From a virus (lineage: Duplodnaviria > Heunggongvirae > Uroviricota > Caudoviricetes), in the IMG/VR virus record IMGVR_UViG_3300035208_002606: a stretch of DNA of 64,000 bases, one strand, 5' to 3'. The notes under the pieces are model-generated. The model was given only the letters and a program-made list of their open reading frames with translations, did no database searches and was not told the origin of the DNA. Position 1 is the first letter of the stretch. Each line of letters begins with the position of its first letter. The translations under genes and the position numbers were made by a program. Below, one piece after another: positions 11,285 to 54,457 of the stretch.

Positions 11285-11383
11285 ATAAATAATAGTGAAG
11301 GACAAGGAGTAATTACCCTTTCAGAATACCTTAGTTATTCTGAATTACTTCACTTTATATTTTGACCAACTAAGGAGGGCGAA
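11285..11383 (+). promoter_or_regulatory. Endonuclease leader element copy 1 (late promoter plus structured pseudoknot 5' UTR)
   Basis: ATAAATA; P1 agtgaag/cttcact; P3 ttcagaata/tattctgaa; loop ccttagt pairs with actaagg at the RBS. Confidence 0.8.
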
Positions 11384-12079
11384 ATGAGAAAAAGATTTAA
11401 TGTTATTTATAAAATAAAAAACGAACAACGAAAATGTTTTTATATAGGGTATTCTACTTTAGGATTAAATCACAGAAAACACACACATAAATATGATTGT
11501 TTTAAACGAAAATTAAATACTAAACTTTATAATTTTATCAGGAAATATGGTTGGGATTCTTTTAATTGGAAAATTATTGCTGTTTATTCTACCCCTGAAG
11601 AACTTCAGCAAGCAGAAATAAATTGGATAAAACAACAAAAAGAAGAATTTTCTGATTGGGAATGTTTGAATTCAGTAGAGGGCGGGTCAGGAAATTTAGG
11701 ATGGGTTCCTTCTATTGATACAAGAAATAGAATGAGTGAGAGTCGTAAAAAATATTTAAAAGAGAATCCCGATATACTCATAAAGCAAATAAAAAAAATG
11801 AAAGAAAATTATTCTCCTCAAAACCACTCTATAAAAATGAAAGAGTTATATTTAAAAAACCCAAACAGAACAAGAGGCGAAAATAATTCAATGTATGGTA
11901 AACACCACTCAAAAGAAGAAAAAAAAAGAAGAAGTAAAATGATGGCTGGAAATAATAATCCAATGTATAAAAAATCTTTTTATAGTGTTTGGTTAGAAAA
12001 ATATGGGAAAGAAATAGCAAATGAAAAACTAAAGAAATGGGCAGATAAACATAGAAAAACACAACACCCTGTGATATAA
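11384..12079 (+). CDS. GIY-YIG homing endonuclease
   Basis: VIYKI..FYIGYS, AEINWI, LNSVEGG, NUMOD3-like MYGKHHS. Confidence 0.85.
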   Translation: MRKRFNVIYKIKNEQRKCFYIGYSTLGLNHRKHTHKYDCFKRKLNTKLYNFIRKYGWDSFNWKIIAVYSTPEELQQAEINWIKQQKEEFSDWECLNSVEGGSGNLGWVPSIDTRNRMSESRKKYLKENPDILIKQIKKMKENYSPQNHSIKMKELYLKNPNRTRGENNSMYGKHHSKEEKKRRSKMMAGNNNPMYKKSFYSVWLEKYGKEIANEKLKKWADKHRKTQHPVI

Positions 12080-12087
12080 TAGTAGTA

Positions 12088-12303
12088 GTGAAGAAAACAA
12101 AATTTGATTTATGGGTAGTTCTCCATCCTGAAAGACATTCAGGATGCTTCAACTGCAAGCATTGGCAGAAGTACAATATTTGTTTCAACCTTGGAAACAA
12201 AGATTGCGACCTGTTCCTGAAAAAGGAAGGGGAAATTACGGAAGAAGAATGGGCGAGAACTTTTCCCCACAGAAAAGGGCCGATTAAAGAAATTTTATTC
12301 TAA
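12088..12303 (+). CDS. Hypothetical Cys-rich protein
   Basis: CxxC motif; GTG start just after TGATATAAT. Confidence 0.45.
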   Translation: MKKTKFDLWVVLHPERHSGCFNCKHWQKYNICFNLGNKDCDLFLKKEGEITEEEWARTFPHRKGPIKEILF

Positions 12304-13601
12304 TGAAAATTAAGGAAAGTTTTTCACATCTTTTGGACCAAGAAAAACCACTACTCCCACAATTAAATAAAATAAAAAGAAGGTGTTTTGCACCTTACAA
12401 AAGTAACTTACAACTACTTCGGTACGAGTGTGAAAATTGCAGTCGAGAGGGAAAGTTCAGGAGTTGCCTATTTTACGAGGCCACGCACCTTTCCTGTTTC
12501 TCCAAGCACCTAAAGGAAATTCAGGAGAGTAAATCGATTCCAAGGCCCAAGAACTTTCACCCCAAGACAGAACGCCTTTGCGTTCGCAAGTACCCGTTGG
12601 AAACAATCCTGAAGGGTACTTGGGCCGTCTTTCTCCACGACAGGGAGGAGCCGTTCAACATCAACACCCCCGAACATAAGGAGTGGCGGCAGGAGCGCAA
12701 GGAAGTCGTAAAGAAACTCCCCTGCGAAAGCACTTGTAAGATGGTAAACTACTGCCCCTTCTATCAAAACGGTGTGAATGTCCGACTCTGCTTCACCGAA
12801 ATAGAGTCGTACGATGACGAAGAAGTCTATTACAAGAAGCACACCCACGACACTCACAAAGGTTATATCAAGGACTCCTACCTCTACAAGAATTTCATCA
12901 AGGGGTCGAAGGTTAAGGAACTTCCCTATGTCAGGACGAACGGAAGCCGCAAGAAATTGGACGAGTGGCATTACAGGGTCTACGAAAAAATCTTCGCCGC
13001 CGTTCAACATCAAAAGAAACAAAAGCGGGTCGTTCTGAAAGGGGTGTTGGACTCCCTGTTGGGACAAGTCGAGACAGAGGAAGAAACTTTAAAAATCCTG
13101 AACGAAAATTCCGAACTTGACTTTCAAAAAATCAGAACCTTCGCAAAGAAGAACGCCGACCTGTTCTCCCAGAATCCTCAGGAGTTGGTCGAAGTGGATT
13201 TTACCTTTTGGCGGGAGTGGGCCAAACAGAGAAATTTGAAATTCTCGGATATTCTCTACGGTTGGTTCTTGGGTCAAGAAGAGTGTCCATCTAGGAAGGA
13301 ACTAGAGGAAAGATTTAAAATAACAAGGTGGACTCAGGTTGAAATTGAAAGACGGTTGGGGGTTCGCAAAGAGTTCAAAAACATCGGAGCCTCTCAAGTC
13401 GAGAACAACTACATTATCAACCCCTACTGCCTGAAAGCCGTATTCAGGATTCTCTCACAAGTCGAAAAAAATAAATTCTTGGAGCCTGTTAGAAAAAGGA
13501 ATAATTTACACTTGGCAACACTTCAGGGAATTACAAATAATAAAAACACAACAGAGTATGATATAATTAATTCAACAGGAAAAATAATAAATAATACTTA
13601 G
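12303..13601 (+). CDS. Hypothetical 432 aa protein with Cys clusters and a possible C-terminal HTH
   Basis: Long ORF with phage-core codon usage; CENC..C..C, CESTC..C..C; PSRKELEERFKITRWTQVEIERRLG. Confidence 0.65.
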   Translation: MKIKESFSHLLDQEKPLLPQLNKIKRRCFAPYKSNLQLLRYECENCSREGKFRSCLFYEATHLSCFSKHLKEIQESKSIPRPKNFHPKTERLCVRKYPLETILKGTWAVFLHDREEPFNINTPEHKEWRQERKEVVKKLPCESTCKMVNYCPFYQNGVNVRLCFTEIESYDDEEVYYKKHTHDTHKGYIKDSYLYKNFIKGSKVKELPYVRTNGSRKKLDEWHYRVYEKIFAAVQHQKKQKRVVLKGVLDSLLGQVETEEETLKILNENSELDFQKIRTFAKKNADLFSQNPQELVEVDFTFWREWAKQRNLKFSDILYGWFLGQEECPSRKELEERFKITRWTQVEIERRLGVRKEFKNIGASQVENNYIINPYCLKAVFRILSQVEKNKFLEPVRKRNNLHLATLQGITNNKNTTEYDIINSTGKIINNT

Positions 13602-14021
13602 GGAAAAATTTTACCAAGGAAAAAGTTTACCAAGGAAAAGGGAAAACGGTTACAAACTTCTCAGAATGCCAGGAGCGACCTAGGCAGTCGTATTCCGCAA
13701 GTTTAGTAACTCACAAGGTTGTCCTAACATCAGGTTGGTGTTAGCAAACAGTCCGCTAGGGAAGTTGAAAAATTGGCCCTAGGAATACTCTTAACTGCAA
13801 TTCACCCCTAATAGTTGTATCGTCTTCGAAATTATTGTAAAGGTTCCTTATTTTTTCAAAGGGGTTAGGACGATTAGAAATTCCTAAGTCTTAGGAATTT
13901 TAAAATTAGGGTAAAAAAAGAAGTGGCACATGGTGGTCTATTCGGAAGACTCCGAATCACGATTTATTTTTATTCTTCTTTTTTATTTCTAGGTGTGGTA
14001 TAATAGGGTTAGGAGTGAAAA
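13602..14021. other. Non-coding block with direct and inverted repeats (possible origin or regulatory region)
   Basis: tttaccaaggaaaa twice (13610, 13626); perfect inverted repeat aaattcctaag-t-cttaggaattt at 13878-13900; TGTGGTATAAT at 13994. Confidence 0.45.
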
Positions 14022-14228
14022 ATGATAAAGAACTTTTGGAATTGGATGAACGAAAAAATTTTCCGTCTGTATCTTGGCTTGATGTTTTTGGGGTGGTTAG
14101 TTCTGATAGGGTGCGCCCTTATGAATTTTACTGAATTTCAAACGATGGTGGCCCTGATTGCGATTTGGCTCCCCTTAGTAGCGGCCCTGATTATTAAGGA
14201 TATTAAGAATAATAATGAGATTTTATAG
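14022..14228 (+). CDS. Small membrane protein (2 TM)
   Basis: AGGAG RBS, two hydrophobic stretches. Confidence 0.55.
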   Translation: MIKNFWNWMNEKIFRLYLGLMFLGWLVLIGCALMNFTEFQTMVALIAIWLPLVAALIIKDIKNNNEIL

Positions 14229-14412
14229 GTTTCTTAAAATCTGTAAGTGGTTCCTGTTTTTTCTCTCTCTTCTCTGCTTTTTCTTGGGAGGCTCCTTTGC
14301 GTGGAGTTCCCTCTATTCTATCGCCTTCTTTTTCTACCTTCAATTCTTCGGCCTCTTCATCGGGGCTGTGGGCCTGAAAAGGCTTTCGATTATTTACAAA
14401 CCCAACCCTTGA
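14215..14412 (+). CDS. Small membrane protein
   Basis: Hydrophobic 65 aa ORF overlapping the previous stop. Confidence 0.45.
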   Translation: MRFYRFLKICKWFLFFLSLLCFFLGGSFAWSSLYSIAFFFYLQFFGLFIGAVGLKRLSIIYKPNP

Positions 14413-14437
14413 CAAGTCCTTAAAATCCTGATATACT
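14409..14437 (+). promoter_or_regulatory. Sigma70-type early promoter
   Basis: TTGACA-17 nt-TATACT. Confidence 0.8.
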
Positions 14438-18863: not shown

Positions 18864-18916
18864 TTGCCACCTCTAAAGTTATTTATTAGAATTTGAAATA
18901 AACATTATAAAAAATA

Positions 18917-19015
18917 ATAAATAATAGTGTAGGGACAGGGGATGCAACCCTTTTTGAAAAGCCCAATTCTTTTCAAATTACCTACAATAAATTAAACTTA
19001 ATTGGGAGGTTTAAG
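18917..19015 (+). promoter_or_regulatory. Endonuclease leader element copy 2
   Basis: ATAAATA; P1 tgtagg/cctaca; P3 tttgaaaag/cttttcaaa; loop cccaatt pairs with aattggg(agg). Confidence 0.8.
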
Positions 19016-19726
19016 ATGAGAAATAATCAAAAGGTTGTTTGGGGGTTTATTTATCTTTTTATTGTTTGTAATAAAGGGTATGTGGGACAAACCCCTTATT
19101 TAAAAAATAGATTTAAATGTCATTTTAAAATTAAAAAATCAAATTCTTACTTCCACAATTCTTTACGCAAATACTTTAAAGAAAATAGTTCTTTCGAAAT
19201 TTTAGAATGTTGGAAAAGAAATGAAAGAAGTTTAGAAGAATTTAAAAAATTACTTAATAATAGAGAAATATTTTGGATTGATAAATTAGGCACTTTTGAC
19301 CCTGAACAAAAAAAGGGTTGGAATTTAACCCGTGGTGGTGGGGGAATTCTTGGATTAAAAGGAAAATTTAGTCCAAATTGGAATAAAAAATTGTCTATAG
19401 AAACTAGAAGAAAAATAAGTGAAAATCACGCAAATATGTCAGGAATGAATAATCCTTGTTTTGGAAGAACGAAAGAGAAACATCCCTTTTTTGGAAAAAG
19501 GGGGAGTTCAACTTACTATTTTGGAAAGCACCATACAAAAGAAACAAAAAATAATATTTCTAAAAAAACAAGAGGGGAAAATAATGGTTCGGTAAAATTA
19601 ACAGAAAAAGAAGTAATTGAAATAAAAAATAGTAGTTTATCTCAAATAGAGTTAGGAAAAATTTATAAAATACATCAATCTCATGTTTCTAGAATAAAAA
19701 GAAATGTAAATTGGAAATATTTATAA
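19016..19726 (+). CDS. GIY-YIG homing endonuclease, close paralog of 10005-10721
   Basis: GFIY..YVGQT, REIFWI, DPEQKKGWNLTRGG. Confidence 0.85.
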   Translation: MRNNQKVVWGFIYLFIVCNKGYVGQTPYLKNRFKCHFKIKKSNSYFHNSLRKYFKENSSFEILECWKRNERSLEEFKKLLNNREIFWIDKLGTFDPEQKKGWNLTRGGGGILGLKGKFSPNWNKKLSIETRRKISENHANMSGMNNPCFGRTKEKHPFFGKRGSSTYYFGKHHTKETKNNISKKTRGENNGSVKLTEKEVIEIKNSSLSQIELGKIYKIHQSHVSRIKRNVNWKYL

Positions 19727-27721: not shown

Positions 27722-28363
27722 ATGAAAAAAAAATATTTTACCGAAGAGGAAAAAAAAGAAGCAAGAAAAAAAGAAAGCGCAAGGTCTTATCAAAAAAACA
27801 AAGAGAAAATAAAAAACTATCAAAAAATATATCGAGAAAAAAATAAAAATATTTTAAAAATAAAAAATGAAGAATACCATGAACTGAATAAGGAAAAATT
27901 AAAAAAATATAGAAAAGTTTATAATCAAAATCATAAAATAGAAAGAAAAAAGTGGTGTAATGAAAATAAAGATAAAGTAAAATTATATAATAAAAAAACT
28001 TATTATAAAAACAAAGAAAAAAGAACAAAAAAAACAATAGAACGATTACACATAGACATTAATTTTAAAATATCTTTTTATTTAAGAAATCGATTACGAG
28101 AGGCCTTTAAACATAATTGGAAATCAGGTTCCGCAGTCAAAGACTTAGGTTGTTCTATCCCCGAACTCAAAACCCATTTAGAATCTAAATTTCAAGAGGG
28201 AATGTCTTGGGATAACTATGGATTTTATGGTTGGCACATCGACCATATTATTCCTTTGGCCTCTTTTGATTTGAGTAATAGAGAAGAATTCTTAAAGGCC
28301 TGTCATTATACAAATCTTCAGCCGATGTGGGCTAAAGAAAATTGGACAAAAGGAAAGAAATGA
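27722..28363 (+). CDS. HNH homing endonuclease
   Basis: GMSWDNYG..WHIDHIIP...CHYTNLQPMWAKEN; Lys-rich N-terminus. Confidence 0.85.
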   Translation: MKKKYFTEEEKKEARKKESARSYQKNKEKIKNYQKIYREKNKNILKIKNEEYHELNKEKLKKYRKVYNQNHKIERKKWCNENKDKVKLYNKKTYYKNKEKRTKKTIERLHIDINFKISFYLRNRLREAFKHNWKSGSAVKDLGCSIPELKTHLESKFQEGMSWDNYGFYGWHIDHIIPLASFDLSNREEFLKACHYTNLQPMWAKENWTKGKK

Positions 28364-28731
28364 AGAGACAGCCGTACGTAACGAACGCAGAAATATTAAA
28401 CGAGTATCAGAAGTATTGGAAGGACGGAACGATTTCCGAAACGATGACGAAACTCATCTACCTGATGGCTAGGAAAATCGCCAACGGCAGGAATTTTTAC
28501 GGCTATCCCTTCAAAGAGGATATGATTCAGGAAGGAGTTATTCACGCCTTGCAAAAAGGCTTGCCAGGATTTGACAGGACGAAGAAAAACCCGTTCTGTT
28601 ATTTATCCGTCATTATTCAGTTCAAATTCATCGAGTATATTAAAAAAGAGAAACGCAATATAACGATTAAGGAAGTGGTGACGGAAAAGTTAAAGGAAGA
28701 TATCCTGCACGATATCAATAAGAGGAAGTAA
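28360..28731 (+). CDS. Late-transcription sigma factor, T4 gp55-like
   Basis: YVTNAE, NFYGYPFKEDMIQEG, FD....NPFCYLS.II...F...IKKEK. Confidence 0.88.
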   Translation: MKRQPYVTNAEILNEYQKYWKDGTISETMTKLIYLMARKIANGRNFYGYPFKEDMIQEGVIHALQKGLPGFDRTKKNPFCYLSVIIQFKFIEYIKKEKRNITIKEVVTEKLKEDILHDINKRK

Positions 28732-29026: not shown

Positions 29027-29448
29027 AATACAATTCTTTAGAACTTCATTGGCTTCAAAAAAAATCCAAAGATTTATTCTATCCAAACTTATTGTTTGTG
29101 TCGGAATTAAAAAGTGCGGGTGGGTATTTTCTCCATCCTAGAAAATCAGAAGTTTGGATTGGTAATCGGGTTTATGATTTAACCAAGGGGATGATTATTG
29201 TCACCGAAATATGGGACGATAAAGAAATTCCCAATACGATTGCCCACGAATGGAGACACTTTTTACAATATCATAAATTTGGACCGATTAAAGGCACACA
29301 ATTTAACAATAAAATACCTTATCCAAGTGCAATCAAATCCTTTTTTCAAAATCCTTTTGAGAGGGACGCATTGTTGTATTCTCATAAAGTAGCACCAAGT
29401 TCAACATCAGATTATTGGATGGAAATAATAAATGAAAATGATAAATAG
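29023..29448 (+). CDS. Putative zincin metallopeptidase
   Basis: TIAHEWRHFLQ (HExxH) and a downstream PFERDA. Confidence 0.65.
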   Translation: MKYNSLELHWLQKKSKDLFYPNLLFVSELKSAGGYFLHPRKSEVWIGNRVYDLTKGMIIVTEIWDDKEIPNTIAHEWRHFLQYHKFGPIKGTQFNNKIPYPSAIKSFFQNPFERDALLYSHKVAPSSTSDYWMEIINENDK

Positions 29449-29536
29449 TAGTGAGGGACAGGGTTCGCTACCTTTTCAAAACACTCCTGATGTTTTGAAT
29501 GACCTCACTAATATTTTGGTTTTCAGGAGGAACTAA
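29441..29536 (+). promoter_or_regulatory. Endonuclease leader element copy 3
   Basis: ATAAATA; P1 tagtgagg/cctcacta; P3 ttcaaaaca/tgttttgaa; loop ctcctga pairs with tcaggag. Confidence 0.8.
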
Positions 29537-30241
29537 ATGGAAAAAAATGGATTGATTTATGTCGGGATAAATTTAGAAAATGGAAAAAAATATGTAGGGT
29601 GTACTCGACATACTTTAGAAACAAGATTAAAATATCATTTTTATGATTTAAAAAGAGGCAAAAGATATGCGTTTAATCAAGCGCTTGATAAATATGGATT
29701 ATCTAAATTTATTTTTATAACTATTCCTATTTCTTTTGAAAAAATGCATCATTATGAAGCATTGGCAATTAGATTTTTAAAAACCAAATCACATCAAAAC
29801 GGTTATAATATTTGTGATGGTGGCAGGGGAATAAAGGACTATACGGGAGAGATTAGAAAAAAAATAAGTAAAAATCATGCCGATGTAAGTGGCGAAAAAA
29901 ATCCCATGTTTGGTAAAAAACGGACACAAAAAGAAAAAGATAATTTATCAAAAATGAGAACAGGAAAAATAGGTTATATTAGAACAGAGGAGACAAATCA
30001 AAAACTCTCAATATCAATGAAAAAATATTGGGCAAGTGGTTTACACACCGATAGAAAAAGAGAGAATCACCCAAGAGCAAGAGCAGTAATATTAAAATCC
30101 CCAAATGGAACAGAGTATAATCTCCCTTGTTATCATCCTTTTTGTAAAGAATACAATTTAAACCCCACCCGTATTCGCTCTGTTTTACAAGGAAAACAAC
30201 AAAGTCATCACGGTTGGTCGGGGAGATATATAGAAAAATGA
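29537..30241 (+). CDS. GIY-YIG homing endonuclease
   Basis: GLIY..NLENGKKYVG.T, GYNICDGG, GEKNPMFGK. Confidence 0.85.
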   Translation: MEKNGLIYVGINLENGKKYVGCTRHTLETRLKYHFYDLKRGKRYAFNQALDKYGLSKFIFITIPISFEKMHHYEALAIRFLKTKSHQNGYNICDGGRGIKDYTGEIRKKISKNHADVSGEKNPMFGKKRTQKEKDNLSKMRTGKIGYIRTEETNQKLSISMKKYWASGLHTDRKRENHPRARAVILKSPNGTEYNLPCYHPFCKEYNLNPTRIRSVLQGKQQSHHGWSGRYIEK

Positions 30242-33636: not shown

Positions 33637-33683
33637 TTTACTACAGTTTGTGGTATAATTAAGGTAGGAGTTTAATTCCAAGA

Positions 33684-36001: not shown

Positions 36002-36005
36002 CAGT

Positions 36006-39501: not shown

Positions 39502-39533
39502 CCAAAATTAAAATAGGAGACGAATGAGAAAGA

Positions 39534-41033
39534 ATGATTCTTGTCGAGAAAACCGCTAACCCTAATTACTTAAAAGTCTCAGCCGAGAAATCTATTTTCG
39601 GTTTCCTAAGCCTTCACTTCACGGTCAAAGACAAAAATTGTTTCTTTCACCCCCTGTACAAGAAAAAACTTTGGGACGGCAAGATAAGATTCCTAAGGTC
39701 TGACGGAACCATTCTGTCGGGCCTACTCGTTGAGATTCTCAGGATTGCCAAAATCAATCATTGGCAAGTACAGTTCGACAAAGACCTCATCCTGAACCCG
39801 CACAAGTTCCAACGCCCTGAAATCGAACTCAGCCTGAAGGATGTCACCCTATTTCCTGACCAAGTGGACACGATAGAAAAACTCCTGAAGTATAATTACG
39901 GACTCTGTAAACTTCCCACGAGCGCAGGAAAGAGTTATATCGAGATAGCCATCATGAACCTCTACAGGCTCCGAGGCCTGAAGAATATGATTTTAATCGT
40001 TCCACGGCAGACGCTCGTGGAACAGATTTACGAGGATGTCGTTCTGAAATCCCCCTTTCTCAAGCCTGAAGAAGTGGGCCGTCTCTACGGCGGCATGAAG
40101 GAATGGGACAAGCCCGTTGTCGTTGCGACTTGGCAGAGCCTCAACACGCTCTTGCAGTTGGACTCCGATTACGGCAAGCGGTTTGAACTGCTCATCCTTG
40201 ATGAGTGTCATATATCTTCTTCAGTAGCAAAAGTTACTAAAGAAGTCATCACCGCCTTCCCCACCAAGCACAAATATGGATTCTCTGCAACAATTTTAAG
40301 TAGAGACGCTGATAAACTTGAGTATCTTAATTCAGTTTCACTCTTTGGCCCAATAACCGCAAGTGGGAGTATCCAAAAACTTCAAGAAATAGATAGAATT
40401 TCTGATGCCGAGATACAAATCAAATTGCTGAAGTATTCCATTCAGCCAGAAATAAAAACATACAACGAATATCAAGATTTTGTGCGTTATTCTCCGAAAC
40501 GAAGAGAATATATCGTGGAATTAATTAAAGAAGTAAAAAATAGATTACCGAACTCTAATGGCCTTCTTCTTATTCGTAATGTTGATTTTGCTAGAGAAAT
40601 GACTGAAATGTTACAGAAAGATTTTGGTGAAAATGTTCATTTAATTGAAGGGTCTGTTAAAGTCGAGGATAGAATTGAAATAAAAAACACTATAAAAAGA
40701 AATGAGAATCAGATATTGGTGGCTTCGGTAGGAACATTTTCTATAGGAGAAAATTTACCCAATCTCCATTGGCTGATTTTGGTTCAATCCCGCAAATCCG
40801 AAATAGAAACCATTCAACAGGTCGGCAGATTATTGAGAAAATATCCAGGGAAAGAAAAGGCACTCATATATGATATAACGGATGACTTGACGGTAATTCG
40901 GACAAACGAAAATGGCAAAGAAATAAAGAAAAATTTCGGGAAAAAACACTTGAAAAAACGCATAGAAGTCTTCCAACGACACGGATTAAAAGTAGTAGGG
41001 ATAGAACAAGTTTATCTTCAAAATAATAAATAG
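39534..41033 (+). CDS. uvsW: SF2 DNA helicase UvsW
   Basis: YKKKLWDGKIRF, PTSAGKS, ATWQSL, DECH, GFSAT, QQVGRLLR. Confidence 0.92.
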   Translation: MILVEKTANPNYLKVSAEKSIFGFLSLHFTVKDKNCFFHPLYKKKLWDGKIRFLRSDGTILSGLLVEILRIAKINHWQVQFDKDLILNPHKFQRPEIELSLKDVTLFPDQVDTIEKLLKYNYGLCKLPTSAGKSYIEIAIMNLYRLRGLKNMILIVPRQTLVEQIYEDVVLKSPFLKPEEVGRLYGGMKEWDKPVVVATWQSLNTLLQLDSDYGKRFELLILDECHISSSVAKVTKEVITAFPTKHKYGFSATILSRDADKLEYLNSVSLFGPITASGSIQKLQEIDRISDAEIQIKLLKYSIQPEIKTYNEYQDFVRYSPKRREYIVELIKEVKNRLPNSNGLLLIRNVDFAREMTEMLQKDFGENVHLIEGSVKVEDRIEIKNTIKRNENQILVASVGTFSIGENLPNLHWLILVQSRKSEIETIQQVGRLLRKYPGKEKALIYDITDDLTVIRTNENGKEIKKNFGKKHLKKRIEVFQRHGLKVVGIEQVYLQNNK

Positions 41034-41119
41034 TAGTGAGGGACAGGGTTCGCTACCTTTTCAAAATGTCCTACCATTTTGAATAACCTCACTAATATTT
41101 TAGTCAGTAGGAGGGCCAA
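41026..41119 (+). promoter_or_regulatory. Endonuclease leader element copy 4
   Basis: ATAAATA; P1 tagtgagg/cctcacta; P3 ttcaaaatg/cattttgaa; loop tcctac pairs with gtagga. Confidence 0.8.
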
Positions 41120-41782
41120 ATGGATTTAGAAAACGGAATTATTTATATTGCCACCAATTTAGTTAATGGAAAACAATATGTGGGCCAAACAGTTAGAAGT
41201 ATAAAAGATAGAATATACGAACATAAAACAAGAAATAAAAAAACTTGTCCTGTTTTTCATTCCGCTATTGTCAAGTATAATATTTCATCTTTCAAATGGG
41301 TGTATTTTGAATATCCTATTGAAAATTTAGATTGGGCTGAAAATTTTTGGATAAAAACCCTGGACACAATATCACCTAATGGTTATAATTTAGATTCAGG
41401 GGGAAACACAACGAAACGACATCATAATTTATCCAAATTAAAAATGAAAATGAAAAAACTTGGGCAAAACAATCCTAATTTTGGACGAATAGGGGAAAAA
41501 CATCCGATGTTTGGTTTAAGAGGTGAAAAAAGTCCTTTGTATGGAAAACCTAGACCAGAATCGTTTAAATTAAAAATGAAAAAAATAATGGAAGGGGATA
41601 ATCATCCTAATTTTGGAAACCATTTGTCACAGACTACAAGAGAAAAAATATCCAAGGCCTTAAAAAATAAATCAAAAAGTGAAAAACATAAATTGTCATT
41701 ATCCAAATCACATAAAGGACAAACTCCTTGGAATAAAGGAAAGTTGGGATGGAAAAAGAAAAAGAGACAGGCTGTGATATAA
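41120..41782 (+). CDS. GIY-YIG homing endonuclease
   Basis: GIIY..NLVNGKQYVGQT, PNGYNLDSGG, PWNKG. Confidence 0.88.
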   Translation: MDLENGIIYIATNLVNGKQYVGQTVRSIKDRIYEHKTRNKKTCPVFHSAIVKYNISSFKWVYFEYPIENLDWAENFWIKTLDTISPNGYNLDSGGNTTKRHHNLSKLKMKMKKLGQNNPNFGRIGEKHPMFGLRGEKSPLYGKPRPESFKLKMKKIMEGDNHPNFGNHLSQTTREKISKALKNKSKSEKHKLSLSKSHKGQTPWNKGKLGWKKKKRQAVI

Positions 41783-41812
41783 TAAATAGTAGTAGAGTCT
41801 AGGAGGAATAAA

Positions 41813-42298: not shown

Positions 42299-42299
42299 A

Positions 42300-42479: not shown

Positions 42480-42497
42480 TAACGAAAGGAAGTACGA

Positions 42498-43073: not shown

Positions 43074-43096
43074 GGGTAGAGGAGATTCCGATTCAG

Positions 43097-43465: not shown

Positions 43466-43480
43466 CAAGGAGGGCCGCAG

Positions 43481-44122: not shown

Positions 44123-44706
44123 AACTAAAAATATTAAACGAAACCAAAATCAGCAGGGTGTGGCAATTCGTTGAGAACCCTAAGTATTCCTTCGGAATTA
44201 TGTCCGCACATCGTAGCGACCTCTCAAGAGACGAGAACGAAGAGAACGAGACCGAACTCCTGAAGAATATTCTCGACAACGGCTACGGATTCATCGAACT
44301 TGTCGGCGGCAGTACGGAAAAGTTGGACAGCGGCGAAGAGGTCGAAATCACCGAACCCTCTTACCTTATCAACGGCATCACCCGCAGAAAACTTGTCAAT
44401 TGGGGGGTCAAGTACAATCAGGACTCAGTTCTCTACAAGAACAAGGACGGTTTTGAACTTATCTCGACTTCCGAACGGAACAACAAGAAGGTCGGGGATA
44501 TCCTAGGACAGTTTAACTTCGCCCAAGGTCGGGAGAATATTGCCCTAGGCATCGAGGCCGTTCGTCAATATTATTCAAGATTAAAGAAGGGCAGTCACCG
44601 CCGCAAGAAGTTTTCCTTCGTCTTCAAGGAAAAACTAAGACCGAATTGGATGGGCGGGATGGCAAACCAAGCACCTGTTTGGATAACCCTAATCGAAGAT
44701 AAATAA
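44119..44706 (+). CDS. Conserved T4-like-phage hypothetical protein
   Basis: GIMSAHR..EN...L...GYG...GG...E.SY...G.KYNQDSVL. Confidence 0.6.
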   Translation: MKLKILNETKISRVWQFVENPKYSFGIMSAHRSDLSRDENEENETELLKNILDNGYGFIELVGGSTEKLDSGEEVEITEPSYLINGITRRKLVNWGVKYNQDSVLYKNKDGFELISTSERNNKKVGDILGQFNFAQGRENIALGIEAVRQYYSRLKKGSHRRKKFSFVFKEKLRPNWMGGMANQAPVWITLIEDK

Positions 44707-44744
44707 TCCCATCACACTTCAACCTGTGGTATAATAAGAGTAAG

Positions 44745-45668
44745 ATGAAACAAAAGAAACTCATACTCTTGGATTTTAATAACATGGTTTACATCGTGGT
44801 GTTTTCCAGATACCTTGTAGACAAGTACAAAGGAATCACCACAAAGGCAATGACGAAAGAGAAGATGGACGAACTGATGCGGGATTCGTTAAAGATGATG
44901 TTCTGTAAAATCTTTAACATTCTCGAATGGAATCAGGATTACCAGATTGACCTCCTATTTGCCAAGGACGGCTACAGGCTTTGGCGCAGGAACAGGCTCT
45001 TTCAGGAGTACAAGGCCCACCGCAAGAGCAAAAGAGATGCCTCTTCCGTTGACTTTGAACTCGTCTTCAATATCTTTGATGAAATTTGGGAGCAGTTGAA
45101 GGCCGTCTTGCCGTATCGTTTCATAAATTTGGACGGCATTGAAGTGGACGATATTATTTACGAAACGATAATGTCGGAATACGACAGTTACGATGCCTTT
45201 CAGATTTATTCAGCCGATGCCGACTTCGTTCAAATCCTGAGGAATAAAAAGGTCGAACTGTACAACCCTAAAATGAAGGAGTTCCGTAAGCCTGAGGATT
45301 CGGAGTTCGACCTGTTCGAGAAAATTATAAGGGGGGACAAATCAGATGGTATTCCGAATATTTACACAGACTCCATCACGGAGCGTCAAAAGCCAATCTT
45401 TACCACTTCTATCAAGGCTTGGTATCAAGACAAAAATGCTTTTAAGGAATTTCTCAAAGCCCAACCCAAGGAAGTGCAAAAGCGATTCATCCGCAACAAG
45501 CGGTTGATTGACATGCGGGATATTCCTGACGATATTCGGAACGATATTCGTACTGCCCTTGTAGTTCCGTCTAAAAATTTCAACCTTCAGGAATACATGA
45601 AAACGGCAAAAAAATATTACATCGAAATGATGGAAGAAAAGGCTGAGATGATTTTCAGAACGGAATAA
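44745..45668 (+). CDS. rnh: RNase H / 5'-3' flap exonuclease (T4 rnh-like)
   Basis: LLDFNN, WRR....EYKAHR, EVDDII, SADADFVQ, GDKSDGIPNI, RNKRLID. Confidence 0.9.
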   Translation: MKQKKLILLDFNNMVYIVVFSRYLVDKYKGITTKAMTKEKMDELMRDSLKMMFCKIFNILEWNQDYQIDLLFAKDGYRLWRRNRLFQEYKAHRKSKRDASSVDFELVFNIFDEIWEQLKAVLPYRFINLDGIEVDDIIYETIMSEYDSYDAFQIYSADADFVQILRNKKVELYNPKMKEFRKPEDSEFDLFEKIIRGDKSDGIPNIYTDSITERQKPIFTTSIKAWYQDKNAFKEFLKAQPKEVQKRFIRNKRLIDMRDIPDDIRNDIRTALVVPSKNFNLQEYMKTAKKYYIEMMEEKAEMIFRTE

Positions 45669-45669
45669 A

Positions 45670-46068
45670 ATGACAATAGAAGAAATCAGGAAACAGGTTT
45701 TTGAGGATGCCCGTCAGCAGTATGAAGACCCCACCGACAGGCTTCAGTCCAACGGGGATAAGGCATTAAAGTATGCAGAATACCGATATCGTATTAGCAA
45801 GGAAAGGGACAAGCAGAAGCGATTGCTAGACCTAAAATACGCAGAATTGTACAAGGCGAACAAGTTCGAATCCAATCGTATTCTTAAAAATAAGCAGGAT
45901 GTGGAGTGCTTCATCGACACGGACGAAGAATATCAAAAGTTAAGAGCCGCTTTCGATACATTGGAAAGTATACTAACTTTTCTTGACCAAGTGGTTCAGG
46001 TCTATCAACAGCGTGAAGCATCGGAACGCCTTATCTTTAAATCCAAAACAGGAATAGGGGACAGATGA
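45670..46068 (+). CDS. uvsY: Recombination mediator, UvsY-like
   Basis: Helical 132 aa; K.DVECFIDTDEEY, FL...V....QR; context. Confidence 0.7.
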   Translation: MTIEEIRKQVFEDARQQYEDPTDRLQSNGDKALKYAEYRYRISKERDKQKRLLDLKYAELYKANKFESNRILKNKQDVECFIDTDEEYQKLRAAFDTLESILTFLDQVVQVYQQREASERLIFKSKTGIGDR

Positions 46069-46256
46069 AATACGATTTAACAGCAACGATAAAAGATGGT
46101 TTTGGTCGCACCCAAACATTCGCCCATTATTCCAATATTTCTGTTTGGAAGGCATTTTGGGTATTTATCGATATTTATTTTAAAACGAAAAAGAATAAAA
46201 GAAACCATATCATTATCACACTTGATGAAAAATTAATAAGGAGTAAAAATGAATAA
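46065..46256 (+). CDS. Hypothetical protein
   Basis: ATGA-coupled small ORF. Confidence 0.45.
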   Translation: MKYDLTATIKDGFGRTQTFAHYSNISVWKAFWVFIDIYFKTKKNKRNHIIITLDEKLIRSKNE

Positions 46257-46986
46257 AGACAATTTTATACTTCTAGATATAGAAGTTAACGTCAACGAGA
46301 ATTTGCAAATCGACAGGCACTTCCACGCCATTCAAATCGGCGCAACCAAAATCACAGACGGAGACTTTAAGAACTATCAGACCTTCAATGCTTTTATCAA
46401 GACACAGAAGATTGAAGAGTATCCCGAAGTCGGCACGGAACTGACGAAGTTCATCAAGAAACTGACGAAGATTACTCAGAAGCAAGTGGATACGGCAGAG
46501 GCTTTTCCCGAAGTGTGGAACAAGTTCTTGGTGTTTTCTGCCCCGTACTTCGAGTTCTTCGCAAGTTGGGGTAAGTACGATTGGGATGTTCTCAAACGTA
46601 ATTGTGATTATTATGACCTTCCGTTCCCGTTCAAGTACCATGTCAACCTGAAGGATTATTACAAGGTGATTTTTAAGAACGAAGATGTTCAAATGGGTGC
46701 AGGGGTTAGAGCGGCTTGCAACTATTTTAAAATCCCCTTCAACGAACAGGGTCAACACAACGGCCTAGAGGATGCCAAGATGATTACGGCTATTGCGGCT
46801 GCTATGGTCGAAAGGGGATTTTACACTTTCAAGAAAACACCATATAATATAGATACGGAAGAGTTGCTAAGACCCACCCCTAAAGACCTTTCGGCCTATA
46901 GATATTTTCTCAATCCCATTCTAGTCAAGGAGTGGAACAAGACTCAAAAACGGTTGAAAGAAATCAAGTATTTCATGTTTCCGTGA
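46249..46986 (+). CDS. DEDDh 3'-5' exonuclease (ERI-1/KapD-like)
   Basis: LDIE, IQIGA, LTKITQ..VD.A, SWG.YD, HNGLEDA. Confidence 0.85.
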   Translation: MNKDNFILLDIEVNVNENLQIDRHFHAIQIGATKITDGDFKNYQTFNAFIKTQKIEEYPEVGTELTKFIKKLTKITQKQVDTAEAFPEVWNKFLVFSAPYFEFFASWGKYDWDVLKRNCDYYDLPFPFKYHVNLKDYYKVIFKNEDVQMGAGVRAACNYFKIPFNEQGQHNGLEDAKMITAIAAAMVERGFYTFKKTPYNIDTEELLRPTPKDLSAYRYFLNPILVKEWNKTQKRLKEIKYFMFP

Positions 46987-46994
46987 GGACAAAA

Positions 46995-48119
46995 ATGGAA
47001 AAAAAGTTTTGGCATCCGTCCGTTACATCCCAATTTACTGTTTGCCCCATTCCTTATCATATGGATACTTACAGAGGGTGTACCTACAACTGCCTCTACT
47101 GCTTCGCAAGAGACTTCGTTGTATTCTCCCGTAGGAATTCCGAACACAAGGAATTTTCATATCTAGTCGGCAACAAAGCAGACTCCCTAGACAAATGGAT
47201 TCAGCGAACTCTCAAGAAGGATTACGATTACGACAAAGCGGAGGAAGTGGCTTTCAAGGAGCGCATCCCCATCAAGATTGGTGCAACTTCCGACCCCTTT
47301 CCACGCTCCGAAGCGCAGGACAAAATCACTTACGATATTTTGAAGGTGTTCGAAAAGTACGATTACCCCTTGGAAATTCAGACGAAGAATCCCGAAGTAC
47401 TTGCAACTTACGCAGAAGACTTTAAAAATCCAAATTGGGTCGTAGCAGTTACGCTGATTTCAACAGATGAAGATTTCCTGAAAGTGGTTGAACCTCTCGC
47501 CCCTTCTGCAAAGGAACGTCTAGCCGCAATTAAGAAATTGACGGAGCAGGGTAAGAAAGTGATGGTGAAAATACAACCCGCCATCTATCCCAAAATCCTG
47601 AAGGACTTGCCCGACTTGGTCGAGAAGATTCACGAGGCAGGGTGCTTCGGCTTCAACACCGAAGGATTGAAAATCAGGAAATCAATGCCTGAAAGTGAAC
47701 GGCTTCTTTTTACTAAAATCAGTAAGGCCATCGGTTACGACCTGAGGAATTATTACGCCAAGAATGGAATTACAACAGGTTCGGATTGGGAGATGACCAA
47801 TCCGAAGAAAATGGAATATATCAACTTGGCACAATCTTTGGCAGATAAATACGGACTGAAATTCTATGTTGCAGACAACAATATGGGCTGTCTAGGTTGT
47901 AACGGAGAATGTTGCGGGACAGACCTTCTGCACGATTACAGGATTTGGGGAAACAACACCCGCAGTCGGCAGTTTCCCGATAAGTCAAAATATTCCGAAG
48001 AACTAGGAAAGTGCAAGGTCAACTTCGTCCGCAGTCAGACCAATGCCAACAAAACAATGAATGAAGTTTCTCAACGCTATAACGAGAAACAGAAGTACGC
48101 TTTGAAGACATTAGTATGA
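46995..48119 (+). CDS. Radical SAM protein (SplB-like family)
   Basis: DTYRGCTYNCLYCFA, GATSDPF, IQTK, EP.APS..ER. Confidence 0.88.
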   Translation: MEKKFWHPSVTSQFTVCPIPYHMDTYRGCTYNCLYCFARDFVVFSRRNSEHKEFSYLVGNKADSLDKWIQRTLKKDYDYDKAEEVAFKERIPIKIGATSDPFPRSEAQDKITYDILKVFEKYDYPLEIQTKNPEVLATYAEDFKNPNWVVAVTLISTDEDFLKVVEPLAPSAKERLAAIKKLTEQGKKVMVKIQPAIYPKILKDLPDLVEKIHEAGCFGFNTEGLKIRKSMPESERLLFTKISKAIGYDLRNYYAKNGITTGSDWEMTNPKKMEYINLAQSLADKYGLKFYVADNNMGCLGCNGECCGTDLLHDYRIWGNNTRSRQFPDKSKYSEELGKCKVNFVRSQTNANKTMNEVSQRYNEKQKYALKTLV

Positions 48120-48151
48120 AACATATCGATTTATTTGCAGGAAGAGTATGA
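48116..48151 (+). pseudogene. Stranded 5' stub of the DNA methyltransferase gene
   Basis: Encodes MKHIDLFAGRV*, matching HIDLFAG of 48839; ATGA-coupled to the radical SAM stop. Confidence 0.75.
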
Positions 48152-48156
48152 AAACA

Positions 48157-48258
48157 ATAAATAATAGTGTAGGGACAAGGAGTAATTACCCATTCGGAAT
48201 ACCTCGTATATTCTGGATTACCTACACTATTTTAATAATTTTACGAGGAGGTTGTTAA
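48157..48258 (+). promoter_or_regulatory. Endonuclease leader element copy 5
   Basis: ATAAATA; P1 atagtgtagg/cctacactat; P3 ttcggaata/tattctgga; loop cctcgta pairs with tacgagg. Confidence 0.8.
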
Positions 48259-48858
48259 ATGGAAAATAATATTGAACTTAAAGAGAAAAAACGATTAAAA
48301 TATTGTTGGGTTTGTGGAAAAGAATTTGAGGCACATACGCCGTGGCACAGATATTGCTCGCACAAATGTGAAGCAGAAAATCAAAGAAATATTAAAGGAA
48401 GAGTTGTTGATAAAGGAAGATATTGTAGACAATGTGGGAAAAAATTTATTCCTTCACGAAATGGGGGACAAAATAAACAACATTGCTCTCCCGAATGTGC
48501 AGTTAAAAGTGCTAGAGAATCTAGGTCTAAATTTTATAAACTAAATCCACAAAAACGAAAAGAGTATGGTTTAAATAGAGAAAAAAAAGTAGGAAAAGAC
48601 AATAATTTATTAAGATTTTATTTGCGATATCCTGAAGCCCCTAAAAAATGTCAAGGTTGTGGCAATGATAGGGTTCTTGATATTGCACACAGACCCGAAT
48701 TTAGGAGAAATGGGGCTTGGAGGTCTAAATCAAATACAACAATCAAAAAAGTATGGATTTTATGCCCAACTTGTCACGCTTTGTTAGATAGAAAAGGCTG
48801 GACTCCAGAAGAGATTGGGATAAAGGAGGAGGAGTCAAATGCCGCTAAAGAAATTTAA
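48259..48858 (+). CDS. HNH-like endonuclease with two Zn fingers
   Basis: CxxC..YCS..C twice; CQGC...LDIAH...LCPTCH. Confidence 0.75.
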   Translation: MENNIELKEKKRLKYCWVCGKEFEAHTPWHRYCSHKCEAENQRNIKGRVVDKGRYCRQCGKKFIPSRNGGQNKQHCSPECAVKSARESRSKFYKLNPQKRKEYGLNREKKVGKDNNLLRFYLRYPEAPKKCQGCGNDRVLDIAHRPEFRRNGAWRSKSNTTIKKVWILCPTCHALLDRKGWTPEEIGIKEEESNAAKEI

Positions 48859-50314
48859 TCATATTGATTTGTTCGCGGGAATTGGGGGATTTTCTTATGC
48901 CGCCCGACAGATTTGGGGTGAGGAATATGAACCCGCATTCTTCTGCGAAATCGACAAGTACTGCCAAGCCGTACTCAGAAAAAATTTTGGAAAGGAGATA
49001 AAGATTTATGGGGACATTAGAAAAGTCACCAAAGAGAGATACCTTAGAGATATTGCCAACGCCAAGGGCATCCAAAACGACAAACGAGAACGAGGAAAAT
49101 TGGAAGAAGAGGCAAGCGGCAGGAAAGGTCTCGACTCCCCCTCTCGCTCTCGCCATTCAAATGTCCCGCCGCAAGAAAACCAAGACTTTAAAATTGACCT
49201 CCTTACCGCTGGCCCACCCTGCCAACCCGCATCTCAAGCAGGAAAGCGAGAAGGAGAGGAAGATGACCGTTGGCTCTGGGACGAAATGTTTAAAGTTATA
49301 CAAGACTTTAAACCGACATGGTGCATCGTTGAAAATGTTTACGGACTTCTTAGTCTCAAAAGGGGAGTGGTATTCGACTCGTTGTTCTCTAAGATGGAAA
49401 GCCTTGGTTACGAAGTCCAACCATTTGTTATTGGTGCAGTCGGCAAAAACGCTCCCCACAAAAGATACCGAGTCTGGTTTATTGCTCACGCCAAGGGCAA
49501 CGGAAGTGTTGGAAAGTCAGGAGGGGTTCGTCAACAGGAACAACGACAGGTCGATGAATTGCTATCCCAACTTGACAACGCAAATCAGCGGGATGCTGAC
49601 TACTCCGAATGTTCAGGACTCAAGGAATGTTCCTGCGGCGCTGAGGCCGAGCAGAATCGAGACGGGGAGAAAGACGGATTATCTCAGCCGCCAAATTGCA
49701 ATGGTTCCGACCCCGACAGGCACGGATTACAAGAGCAGAGGGCCGAACAGCAAACAGATGGGCGTGGACAATTTGATGAAAATGCTCCCGACCCCAAGCA
49801 CGAAGGATATGTCGGGCGGGGCAGTACAGGCAGAGGCAACGGAGACGGGATTCAAGAGGGTGAGCAAACAGGGCAAATCTCACGGGGCGCAACTTCACGA
49901 TGTGGTGAAGACCGTCTCGATGTTGGGAACTCCGAAGGAACAGGACAGTCGTGCGGCTTTGACGGACAGGGGCCGAAGCAATATGGGGGAGCAAGTGAAT
50001 CAGGCTTTGAAAGATGGGACAGAGGGTGGTATGAAGTTGCAACCAAACTTTGTAGAGTGGCTAATGGGCTTCCCGCAAAATTGGACGGACTTGAACTCAC
50101 CGCCTCCAAACACAGAGAAGAAAGATTGAGAGCGTTAGGAAATGCCGTAGTGCCGCCGTTGGTTGCCGAGTTTCTCAAGGCCATTAAAAAGGTCGAAGAG
50201 ATGAATTTGACGGACGAGCCAAAAGTGAAAAAAACGATTGAACACATAAATATAGATGAGAGTGGAGAAAAGTATTTCGTGACAAAGACACTAAAGAATT
50301 TTGGAGTGAAGTAA
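48839..50314 (+). CDS. C5 cytosine DNA methyltransferase, large (alpha) polypeptide
   Basis: Motifs I FAGIGG, II EID, III GDI, IV GPPCQ, VI ENV, VIII R.RVW, X LGNAV; motif IX not evident. Confidence 0.9.
   Translation: MPLKKFNHIDLFAGIGGFSYAARQIWGEEYEPAFFCEIDKYCQAVLRKNFGKEIKIYGDIRKVTKERYLRDIANAKGIQNDKRERGKLEEEASGRKGLDSPSRSRHSNVPPQENQDFKIDLLTAGPPCQPASQAGKREGEEDDRWLWDEMFKVIQDFKPTWCIVENVYGLLSLKRGVVFDSLFSKMESLGYEVQPFVIGAVGKNAPHKRYRVWFIAHAKGNGSVGKSGGVRQQEQRQVDELLSQLDNANQRDADYSECSGLKECSCGAEAEQNRDGEKDGLSQPPNCNGSDPDRHGLQEQRAEQQTDGRGQFDENAPDPKHEGYVGRGSTGRGNGDGIQEGEQTGQISRGATSRCGEDRLDVGNSEGTGQSCGFDGQGPKQYGGASESGFERWDRGWYEVATKLCRVANGLPAKLDGLELTASKHREERLRALGNAVVPPLVAEFLKAIKKVEEMNLTDEPKVKKTIEHINIDESGEKYFVTKTLKNFGVK
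49008..50129 (+). CDS. Nested +1-frame methyltransferase (beta) polypeptide carrying motif IX and (L/P)TP repeats (start uncertain)
   Basis: 373 open codons; repeated LPTP/LTTP/VPTP/LGTP units; LQPNFVEWLMGFPQNWT. Confidence 0.75.
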   Translation: MGTLEKSPKRDTLEILPTPRASKTTNENEENWKKRQAAGKVSTPPLALAIQMSRRKKTKTLKLTSLPLAHPANPHLKQESEKERKMTVGSGTKCLKLYKTLNRHGASLKMFTDFLVSKGEWYSTRCSLRWKALVTKSNHLLLVQSAKTLPTKDTESGLLLTPRATEVLESQEGFVNRNNDRSMNCYPNLTTQISGMLTTPNVQDSRNVPAALRPSRIETGRKTDYLSRQIAMVPTPTGTDYKSRGPNSKQMGVDNLMKMLPTPSTKDMSGGAVQAEATETGFKRVSKQGKSHGAQLHDVVKTVSMLGTPKEQDSRAALTDRGRSNMGEQVNQALKDGTEGGMKLQPNFVEWLMGFPQNWTDLNSPPPNTEKKD

Positions 50315-53385: not shown

Positions 53386-53386
53386 A

Positions 53387-53662: not shown

Positions 53663-53663
53663 T

Positions 53664-54008
53664 ATGTGTATAAGTAAAGAAATGGCAGGGAATTATCCAA
53701 AAGAAATGACAGGGAATTATCCATCTCACCCTTATGTGGGTGCAGAGGTAAAAAGACCCACTAATCAAAGGGATGAGAATGAAAAGATTTTGGCAGTATT
53801 AATGGAAATACAGAGTTTCTCTGCTAAGATTTTAGAAATGGCTGAGGATATGAAAGATTATTATTTAGGGGCGAGGCCCGAAAAGTCAGGGGAAGACGAG
53901 GTAATCAATCCTGCGCCGCGGAATGGCTTTTTCGACAAAATATTGAGTATTTCAAATGAGACTCAACGTAATTTGTCAGAGATTTGGGAAATATTGCATA
54001 AGATGTAA
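53664..54008 (+). CDS. Hypothetical protein with a 24 nt tandem duplication
   Basis: KEMAGNYP-KEMTGNYP. Confidence 0.5.
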   Translation: MCISKEMAGNYPKEMTGNYPSHPYVGAEVKRPTNQRDENEKILAVLMEIQSFSAKILEMAEDMKDYYLGARPEKSGEDEVINPAPRNGFFDKILSISNETQRNLSEIWEILHKM

Positions 54009-54032
54009 GGAGGATAACAAGGAAAAATAAAG

Positions 54033-54251
54033 ATGGAAATTAAAATCACCAATGCGAAAAAAATTAAAATAAAAGAAGGCGACCTTTTGGTCTTTGAAGT
54101 GGATGCTAAGTTGTCGCCTAAAAGGTTTATTGAATGGGCAGAAAAATTCACAAAGGGGATGGAAGAGTTATATCCAAATATCAAGGTTTTGGTTTTACCA
54201 AAAGAAGTACAACTAAAAACTATTCTTAATGCGGAAAAGTTGAAAAAATAA
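54033..54251 (+). CDS. Hypothetical protein
   Basis: RBS plus ORF. Confidence 0.5.
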   Translation: MEIKITNAKKIKIKEGDLLVFEVDAKLSPKRFIEWAEKFTKGMEELYPNIKVLVLPKEVQLKTILNAEKLKK

Positions 54252-54268
54252 TAACACAAGGAGACATA

Positions 54269-54343
54269 ATGGACGATATGGAATTGCTATCGATTGCGGA
54301 AAAACACTTTAACGGCGATGTCAACATTGCGAAAATTTGGTAA
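54269..54343 (+). pseudogene. Stranded 5' stub of the ribonucleotide reductase gene
   Basis: MDDMELLSIAEKHFNGDVNIAKIW* versus NrdJ start ..VADRFFDGDVNIAKIWY; has its own AAGGAG RBS. Confidence 0.85.
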
Positions 54344-54361
54344 CAAAATAAAACCAAAATG

Positions 54362-54457
54362 ATAAATACAGGTGAAGGACAGGGAGTCGCGACCTTTCTA
54401 AATGTCCTAGCATTTAGATTACTTCACTTGATTATTTTAACTCTAGGAGGTTAGAAG
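54362..54457 (+). promoter_or_regulatory. Endonuclease leader element copy 6
   Basis: ATAAATA; P1 aggtgaag/cttcactt; P3 tctaaatg/catttaga; loop tcctag pairs with ctagga. Confidence 0.8.

Follow-up and report, generated by a model that had tools for sequence, protein, structure and literature searches.

Homing endonucleases need sparing, well-timed expression; how this is achieved has so far been described from a few T-even phages, in the form of gene-specific hairpins. In the T-even genes I-TevI, I-TevII, I-TevIII, and segB, and in mobE of Aeh1, the ribosome-binding site (RBS) is buried in RNA structure, which blocks translation (PMC2988022; PMC3014915). In the T-even homing endonuclease genes, late promoters located inside the inhibitory structures release this block (PMC2988022; PMC3014915). 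A second relevant type of element is the PeSL, which combines an early sigma-70 promoter with a terminator-like stem-loop and acts as a patch of DNA homology (PMC2839356; PMC4122927). Here, we describe a structured leader of approximately 100 nucleotides (nt) that precedes six nuclease genes in a 64,000-nt stretch of a Caudoviricetes virus (IMG/VR record IMGVR_UViG_3300035208_002606); the whole stretch is referred to as the window. Each site is probably the sense-strand 5' leader of a mobile cassette and would act as a cis-acting translational lock on a homing endonuclease gene. A first-pass annotation of the window had compared the leaders with the RBS-occluding hairpins of T4, and the comparison is apt (PMC2988022; PMC3014915).

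The first-pass annotation had recorded + strand leader copies at positions 11285, 18917, 29441, 41026, 48157, and 54362. All six were present when the sequences were read directly, and a regular-expression scan of the window returned these six and no further copy. A covariance model, as had been suggested, was built, here from 30 leader copies (R1), and searched against the window with filters off. R1 recovered the six copies with E values of 1e-18 to 6e-12; nothing else in that search was credible, the best remaining match having an E value of 0.2. An exact-pattern scan of IMG/VR gave 99 loci, approximately 45 of which were true copies, and a metagenome scan supplied additional copies. Relatives thus exist outside the window: 74 distinct leaders were identified by covariance model in viral and metagenome contigs.

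The listed elements of the leader were all present, namely an ATAAATA box, helix P1, GACA, helices P2 and P3, U-N-A, the returning strand P1', an AT-rich linker, and the Shine-Dalgarno sequence. From the 5' end, ATAAATA is followed by 3 nt, P1 (GTGAAG, GTGAGG or GTGTAGG), GACA, the P2 hairpin, one or two U, and P3. After P3 come U-N-A, P1', an AT-rich stretch, and GGAGG, with ATG placed 7-10 nt downstream of GGAGG. P1 has 8 base pairs (bp), P2 3-5 bp (GG..CC), P3 9 bp with a 6-7-nt loop, and a fourth helix, P4, 7-11 bp. The six copies are as follows.

11285..11383, + strand: leader copy 1; box 11285-11291, P1 5' strand from 11293, predicted late start 11297; P3 loop (L3) 11329-11335 CCTTAGT; P4 loop (L4) 11369-11375 ACTAAGG, which runs into GGAGG
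18917..19015, + strand: leader copy 2, placed after a divergent - strand gene, with a sigma-70-like site at 18864-18892; L3 18962-18968 CCCAATT; L4 19000-19006 AATTGGG
29441..29536, + strand: leader copy 3; L3 29484-29490 CTCCTGA; L4 29523-29529 TCAGGAG
41026..41119, + strand: leader copy 4, whose box contains the stop codon of a UvsW-like gene; L3 41069-41074 TCCTAC; L4 41107-41112 GTAGGA
48157..48258, + strand: leader copy 5; L3 48202-48208 CCTCGTA; L4 48242-48248 TACGAGG
54362..54457, + strand: leader copy 6; L3 54405-54410 TCCTAG; L4 54443-54448 CTAGGA

Copy 6 is the most divergent of the six, and its outer P1 pairs are altered on both sides. GACA was found in nearly all of the 74 unique leaders (exceptions seen: GACG twice, AACA, and GACT), and U-N-A was near-invariant. 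GACA, the GG/CC of P2, and U-N-A stay constant, whereas P1, P3, P4, and both loops vary freely.

P1, P2, and P3 were recovered by RNAalifold, and single-sequence minimum free energy (MFE) folding gave the junction and P4 in five of the six window copies. The P4 hairpin occurs in nearly every leader. The loop closed by its stem is made up of precisely those 6-7 nt complementary to the P3 loop and contains the first 2-4 bases (the 5' part) of GGAGG, and the 3' strand of P4 consists of the remaining Shine-Dalgarno sequence and the spacer, ending at or in the start codon. That the entire 6-7-nt P3 loop is complementary to the sequence entering the Shine-Dalgarno sequence had been noticed before, and it holds in all six copies exactly as listed. 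The contact had been labelled a pseudoknot. The P3 loop does pair with the RBS region; its partner, however, is not a free strand but the P4 hairpin loop, as supported by covariation. An H-type pseudoknot was therefore rejected in favor of an intramolecular kissing loop. The alignments thus show a predicted fold in which a three-way junction (P1, P2, P3) and an external hairpin (P4) are tied together by an intramolecular kissing loop. Pairing between the box and the linker as an extended P1 was also examined, and there was no covariation past the 8-bp P1. An alternative pairing between the 5' strands of P3 and P4, which copy 1 allows and copy 2 lacks, was set aside.

Covariation was evaluated with a second model (R2), which contains P1-P4 without the loop-loop helix. 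Pairs were counted on the resulting alignment, A7, to which the kiss was added as a pseudoknot. Paired cells made up 94.5% of A7, compared with 74% in shuffles and at most 51.5% when partner columns were slid. Both sides had changed in 32 of the 35 pairs. By helix, the paired fraction was 98% for P1, 85% for P2, 99% for P3, 91% for P4, and 91% for the loop-loop helix. The last of these was not fitted by the model behind A7; it nevertheless had double changes at six of its seven positions, with up to four pair types per position. Six to seven contiguous loop-loop pairs were found in 69 of the 73 unique leaders with enough 3' sequence, among 52 distinct P3 loops. Of the 321 loop-loop pairs counted in the first 48 leaders, 320 were Watson-Crick, and non-cognate combinations of loop and tail mostly gave 3-5 pairs. 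The complementarity of the P3 and P4 loops is far beyond chance. G-U pairs had been cited in favor of a + strand RNA. They are frequent in P3 and P4, which indicates that the folded molecule is the + strand RNA, and are nearly absent from the loop-loop helix.

In the proposed mechanism, the near-invariant GACA and U-N-A strands would join P1, P2, and P3, and the P3 loop would kiss the P4 loop, covering the 5' part of the Shine-Dalgarno sequence. The 3' strand of P4 would pair with the remaining Shine-Dalgarno sequence and the spacer, up to the AUG in some copies. The RBS would thus be under a double lock, one a stem and the other an intramolecular kissing loop, and nuclease translation would be held down. 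Given the T-even precedent of an RBS buried by RNA structure, and with the RBS of the leader buried twice, a cis-acting translational lock is the best-supported reading, and we infer from the sequences that it represses nuclease translation.

The genes that follow the six leaders, together with a further box that belongs to the copy-4 site, are as follows.

11384..12079, + strand: GIY-YIG + NUMOD3 homing endonuclease gene, 231 amino acids (aa), after copy 1
19016..19726, + strand: GIY-YIG + NUMOD3 homing endonuclease gene, 236 aa, after copy 2
29537..30241, + strand: GIY-YIG + NUMOD3 homing endonuclease gene, 234 aa, after copy 3
41120..41782, + strand: GIY-YIG + NUMOD3 homing endonuclease gene, 220 aa, after copy 4
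41781: second AATAAATA box, after the copy-4 nuclease gene, serving the next gene
48259..48858, + strand: zinc-ribbon HNH-type endonuclease gene (phrog_1271), 199 aa, after copy 5
54458..55432, + strand: DUF7487-family nuclease gene with a PD...EIK motif, 324 aa, after copy 6

Four GIY-YIG genes, one HNH-like gene, and one PD-(D/E)xK gene had been assigned by the first-pass annotation. The four GIY-YIG genes stand; the copy-5 gene can be specified as the zinc-ribbon HNH type and the copy-6 gene as DUF7487 with PD...EIK. The copy-6 protein shares 36% identity with a DUF7487 member (E 4e-40). Beyond the window as well, the leader is exclusively associated with predicted nuclease genes of several families. 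All 41 downstream open reading frames (ORFs) of at least 100 aa were nucleases, and they fell into five BLAST clusters: GIY-YIG/NUMOD3 (20), endonuclease VII-like (11), DUF7487 with PD...EIK (8, including window copy 6), and two singletons, the zinc-ribbon HNH type (window copy 5) and a DUF723/HNH type. Mean leader identity was 0.73 within a nuclease cluster and 0.72 between clusters, which bears out the earlier claim that the leader is independent of nuclease family. Near-identical leaders, alike in both loops and P4 down to the start codon, stand before different families; window copy 5 and the leader L083 are 96% identical, and copy 3 and the leader L034 have the loop CTCCTGA in common before nucleases of different families. 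The exchangeable unit therefore ends at the start codon.

The box was compared with the gp55-type late promoter consensus (TATAAATA / NATAAATA); the late promoter of g55-bearing T4-like cyanophages is NATAAATA (PMC2984593). On the + strand of the window, all 12 occurrences of AATAAATA lie at gene boundaries, though gene interiors make up 82% of the window. On the - strand, two of five occurrences are at boundaries and three are interior. A late sigma factor is encoded in the window.

28342..28731, + strand: gp55-like late sigma factor gene; tblastn with T4 gp55 E 4.6e-9 (match 28435-28671), Sigma70_r2 E 9e-5

Homologues occupy the same position in G001, a complete 223-kb genome with terminal repeats, and in G002, another leader-bearing record. 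Because AATAAATA on the + strand lies only at gene boundaries and a gp55-like factor is encoded, the (A/C)TAAATA box is probably a gp55-type late promoter. The window gp55-like gene has only 129 codons, and the matches in the other two records (G001:54869-55240, G002:164632-165000) contain two TAA stops; a split or a shortened gene is possible. A leader-nuclease cassette lies approximately 700 nt downstream of it in the window, and in G001 a leader at 56594 lies downstream of the gp55-like match. A further site, at window positions 63732-63790, has the box and first bases of the leader (ACTAAATAATAGTAGG), followed by a different structure, a GC-rich hairpin (GGCTTGGGGAACAAGCC) and a second inverted repeat.

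The T4 late octamer occupies positions -13 to -6. By this spacing, +1 at the leader would fall within the P1 5' strand, on the last (third) base of GTG. The box had been described as lying upstream of the whole structure; this is correct for P3, P4, and the kiss, whereas the predicted start falls inside the P1 5' strand. Transcripts that read through from upstream would carry the full 8-bp P1, and promoter-proximal transcripts would retain P3, P4, and the kiss with 4-5 of the 8 P1 pairs. In MFE folds of the RNAs truncated at +1, P3 and P4 were kept in all six copies, and P1 was kept in three and lost in three. Even upstream of the predicted start, compensatory change preserves the outer pairs of P1 (CAG/TTG in copy 6, ATA/TAT in the others), which indicates that longer read-through transcripts also matter.

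These two transcript forms suggest a tentative alternative, which we consider possible but doubtful, namely a temporal switch. In early or middle read-through transcripts, the full P1 would fix the junction and hold P3 against P4, so that the gene is off. Late transcripts from the box, beginning at the G of GTG, would be left with half of P1; the lock would be looser and the nuclease would be made late. The constant spacing of 3 nt between box and P1 (73 of 74 leaders), the compensatory change in the outer P1 pairs, the loss of P1 from half of the truncated folds, the encoded gp55 homologue, and the T4 precedent (PMC3014915) are all in keeping with this idea. P3, P4, and the kiss, however, all lie downstream of the predicted start, and nothing in the sequences ties the kiss to P1. 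In addition, the start was placed by analogy with T4, and a sigma-70-like site is also found 25 nt upstream of the copy-2 leader. A second late-promoter-like box in the linker, which would give a T4-style bypass, was looked for; some copies read TAAAT(T/C) there, with the last A missing, and the candidate was rejected as not conserved.

Since P1 would be at or near the 5' end of box-initiated transcripts, the leader could instead be mainly an element of mRNA stability or processing, giving 5'-end protection or RNase cleavage, with Shine-Dalgarno occlusion being secondary. GGAG, the target motif of T4 RegB (PMC3014915), is found at the boundary of the P4 loop and stem. The strongest covariation nevertheless falls exactly between the P3 loop and the Shine-Dalgarno loop, which a 5' stabilizer would not need, and this explanation is improbable.

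Several observations weigh against the translational lock as proposed. The box is upstream of P3 and P4, so transcripts from the box keep the lock, unlike in T4, and nothing in the sequence shows a route to efficient nuclease production. A perfect GGAGG at ideal spacing behind so elaborate a lock hints that release is regulated, for which the proposed mechanism makes no provision. The invariant junction bases exceed the needs of simple occlusion. As for the box, 24 of the 74 leader boxes read ACTAAATA, unlike NATAAATA, and TAAATA is only weakly enriched 8-60 nt upstream of ORFs preceded by a Shine-Dalgarno sequence (5 of 45 occurrences in 6.8% of the sequence); of these box tests, the one on the octamer alone was informative. 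Finally, two nuclease genes in the window (starting at 27722 and 36006) have neither leader nor Shine-Dalgarno sequence. The contrast between the perfect GGAGG of the leader genes and these leaderless genes argues that some release exists. The leader may be a constitutive throttle without release, the lock may be looser in transcripts that start inside P1, or a factor may act on the conserved junction. The two leaderless homing endonuclease genes (27722-28363 and 36006-36803), one endonuclease VII-like and one GIY-YIG, both begin shortly after a AATAAATA box, and no Shine-Dalgarno sequence is recognizable in either.

A factor that acts on the junction corresponds to a sensor switch, an idea of the first-pass annotation, in which the junction would bind a small molecule or a phage or host protein that strengthens or breaks the P3-P4 kiss and thereby gives common control. 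GACA, the GG/CC of P2, and U-N-A remain constant while the helices and loops change, and such unpaired bases could form a pocket. A strong Shine-Dalgarno sequence behind a lock likewise suggests conditional release, the more so as the leaderless nuclease genes of the window lack one. Yet no conserved alternative pairing appears in MFE or centroid folds, the downstream genes have no common metabolic theme, no riboswitch model matches, and the conserved junction is equally explained as a scaffold that aims P3 at P4. A sensor is therefore rather unlikely. If it exists, its ligand would be a protein or a small molecule of phage or host origin, for example a nucleotide tied to replication or DNA damage, and every nuclease mRNA would be opened or closed at once. 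The leader would then be a shared master switch captured by unrelated nuclease families via cassette exchange, and would show how the phage coordinates all its selfish nucleases.

The borders of the putative cassette are shown by comparison of the UvsW site between records. In G001, the junction between UvsW and the next gene has a single box without a nuclease gene and reads ...ctgtaatata ATAAATA cagt AGGAGG ccgaca ATG. The window and G002 have the same native box, but it is separated from UvsW by a box, a leader, and a GIY-YIG gene. The nuclease-free allele thus indicates that the box, leader, and gene form one inserted cassette, and that the downstream gene retains its own box. The nuclease ORF at this site ends in CTGTGATA(T/C)AA, resembling the sequence upstream of the native box. 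The box recurs directly after the copy-4 nuclease gene, and a related sequence follows the copy-1 nuclease gene. A joint from 29441 to 30333 (891 nt skipped) was rejected as a further nuclease-free allele, because its 21-nt side, at 85% likeness, was too weak. When DNA contigs of four landfill/groundwater runs were compared with positions 28900-48899, the assemblies were found to break at the leader repeats.

Two further cassettes lie at or just before the starts of other genes. The copy-5 cassette interrupts a DNA cytosine methyltransferase gene within its first codons (48116-48151 and 48839-50314). The leftover ORF upstream of copy 5 (MKHIDLFAGRV*) repeats the methyltransferase motif I region (…NHIDLFAGIGG…), and the working gene begins again at 48839, where it overlaps the 3' end of the copy-5 nuclease gene. 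The copy-6 cassette is situated just before the gene of the ribonucleotide reductase large subunit (54269-54343 and 55435 onward). A 24-codon ORF upstream of copy 6 ends in FNGDVNIAKIW*, repeating FDGDVNIAKIW of the reductase N-terminus. The site appears to be a duplicated or replaced start of the reductase gene, reminiscent of mobE in the nrd genes of Aeh1. Elsewhere in the window, positions 780-7148 are a single ORF of 2122 codons.

The cassette structure raises the question of whether the repeat acts as DNA, as a PeSL-like recombination module that shuffles nuclease cassettes, its RNA fold being incidental. In its favor, exchange of the leader between nuclease families has its breakpoints at the start codon, each cassette end has a copy of the box, and PeSLs provide a precedent (PMC2839356; PMC4122927). 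The compensatory change in 32 of 35 pairs is against it, as are the frequent G-U pairs, which are A-C mismatches on the other strand. Moreover, the hypervariable loops stay complementary, and homology-driven recombination would not select for such complementarity. We regard this explanation as hardly tenable.

The leader-bearing phages are a group of large uncultured phages, and the phage of the window is an uncultured T4-like phage. In whole-record searches, G001 had 8 leader copies, a 169-kb contig 5, an 89-kb contig 11, a 56-kb contig 6, and a 33-kb contig 2; the highest count per contig was 11. Neither the leader (blastn) nor 6 kb of the window (megablast) had a match among GenBank phages. 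Among 185,579 prokaryotic species genomes, 22 pattern matches were found, none was confirmed by the covariance model, and no host clue was obtained. Five of the eight G001 leaders (L112, L116, L119, L126, and L012:6059) precede nuclease ORFs shortened to 15-50 codons, with leader and loop complementarity intact; these ORFs are decaying nuclease genes with surviving locks. In three remnant leaders (L067:8851-8955, L012:8593-8700, and L015:8339-8419), the three-way junction is recognizable, and P4, the Shine-Dalgarno sequence, and the ORF are lost.

Read as a translational lock, the leader would be a modular RNA device that brings along a promoter-like box and a programmable address of 7 bp, matched to the RBS of each gene. 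It would show an intramolecular kissing loop serving in nature as a translational lock, and the regulatory leader, besides the nuclease gene, would be a mobile, exchangeable unit. As a covariation-rich new family of cis-regulatory RNA, it is a natural candidate for Rfam. The comparison with Rfam that had been proposed was made for the whole window; no family of Rfam 15 reached the gathering threshold, and at E values up to 10 only chance-level matches on two copies were seen. A full-text literature search on the theme gave no description of such a leader. Readings as a tRNA-like element, a ribozyme, or a guide RNA were rejected, since none has a matching model and the variable loop fits only the RBS of its own gene.

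Parts of the leader resemble several known RNAs. ColE1 RNA I/RNA II and R1 CopA/CopT are antisense pairs whose hairpins kiss through fully complementary 7-nt loops; they act in trans, between two RNAs, and control replication. The leader likewise has 6-7-nt loops that are complementary throughout, but its contact lies within one mRNA and covers the Shine-Dalgarno sequence. In riboswitch aptamers built on a three-way junction with a tertiary loop-loop helix, such as the purine riboswitch, the junction has conserved bases and is closed by P1, the kiss is formed between the two junction arms, and the ligand sits in the junction. The leader resembles this architecture, except that its kiss reaches an external hairpin and that no Rfam model matches. 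The HEARO/omega RNA of IscB is the guide RNA of an RNA-guided HNH nuclease. Like HEARO, the leader is a structured RNA beside a selfish nuclease gene; its variable 7 nt, in contrast, match its own RBS, and the nucleases belong to protein-guided families.

Similar to PeSLs (PMC2839356; PMC4122927), the leaders are repeated regulatory modules at gene boundaries of T4-type phages, travel with variable genes, and mark recombination junctions. They differ from PeSLs in combining a late-type box with the structured, four-helix leader of a translated gene, under selection at the RNA level, and no terminator-like site was present in the one stretch scanned (around copy 2). The closest likeness is to the T-even hairpins. 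Both concern homing endonuclease genes of T4-type phages, bury a consensus Shine-Dalgarno sequence, have a late-promoter-like box, and presumably restrain the nuclease. In the leader, the Shine-Dalgarno sequence is paired in conserved helices (P4 and the loop-loop helix, 91% paired, with compensatory changes), and the box precedes the P3 loop by approximately 40 nt and P4 by approximately 80 nt, whereas in the T-even elements the 5' strand of the inhibitory stem is absent from late transcripts. Each T-even element is a single hairpin specific to its gene, and these hairpins have no sequence in common. The leader is one conserved kissing-loop fold of approximately 100 nt and four helices, shared by at least five nuclease families and repeated up to 11 times per contig. 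Its type of function is already known; its architecture, its modular spread over nuclease families, and its copy number are new.

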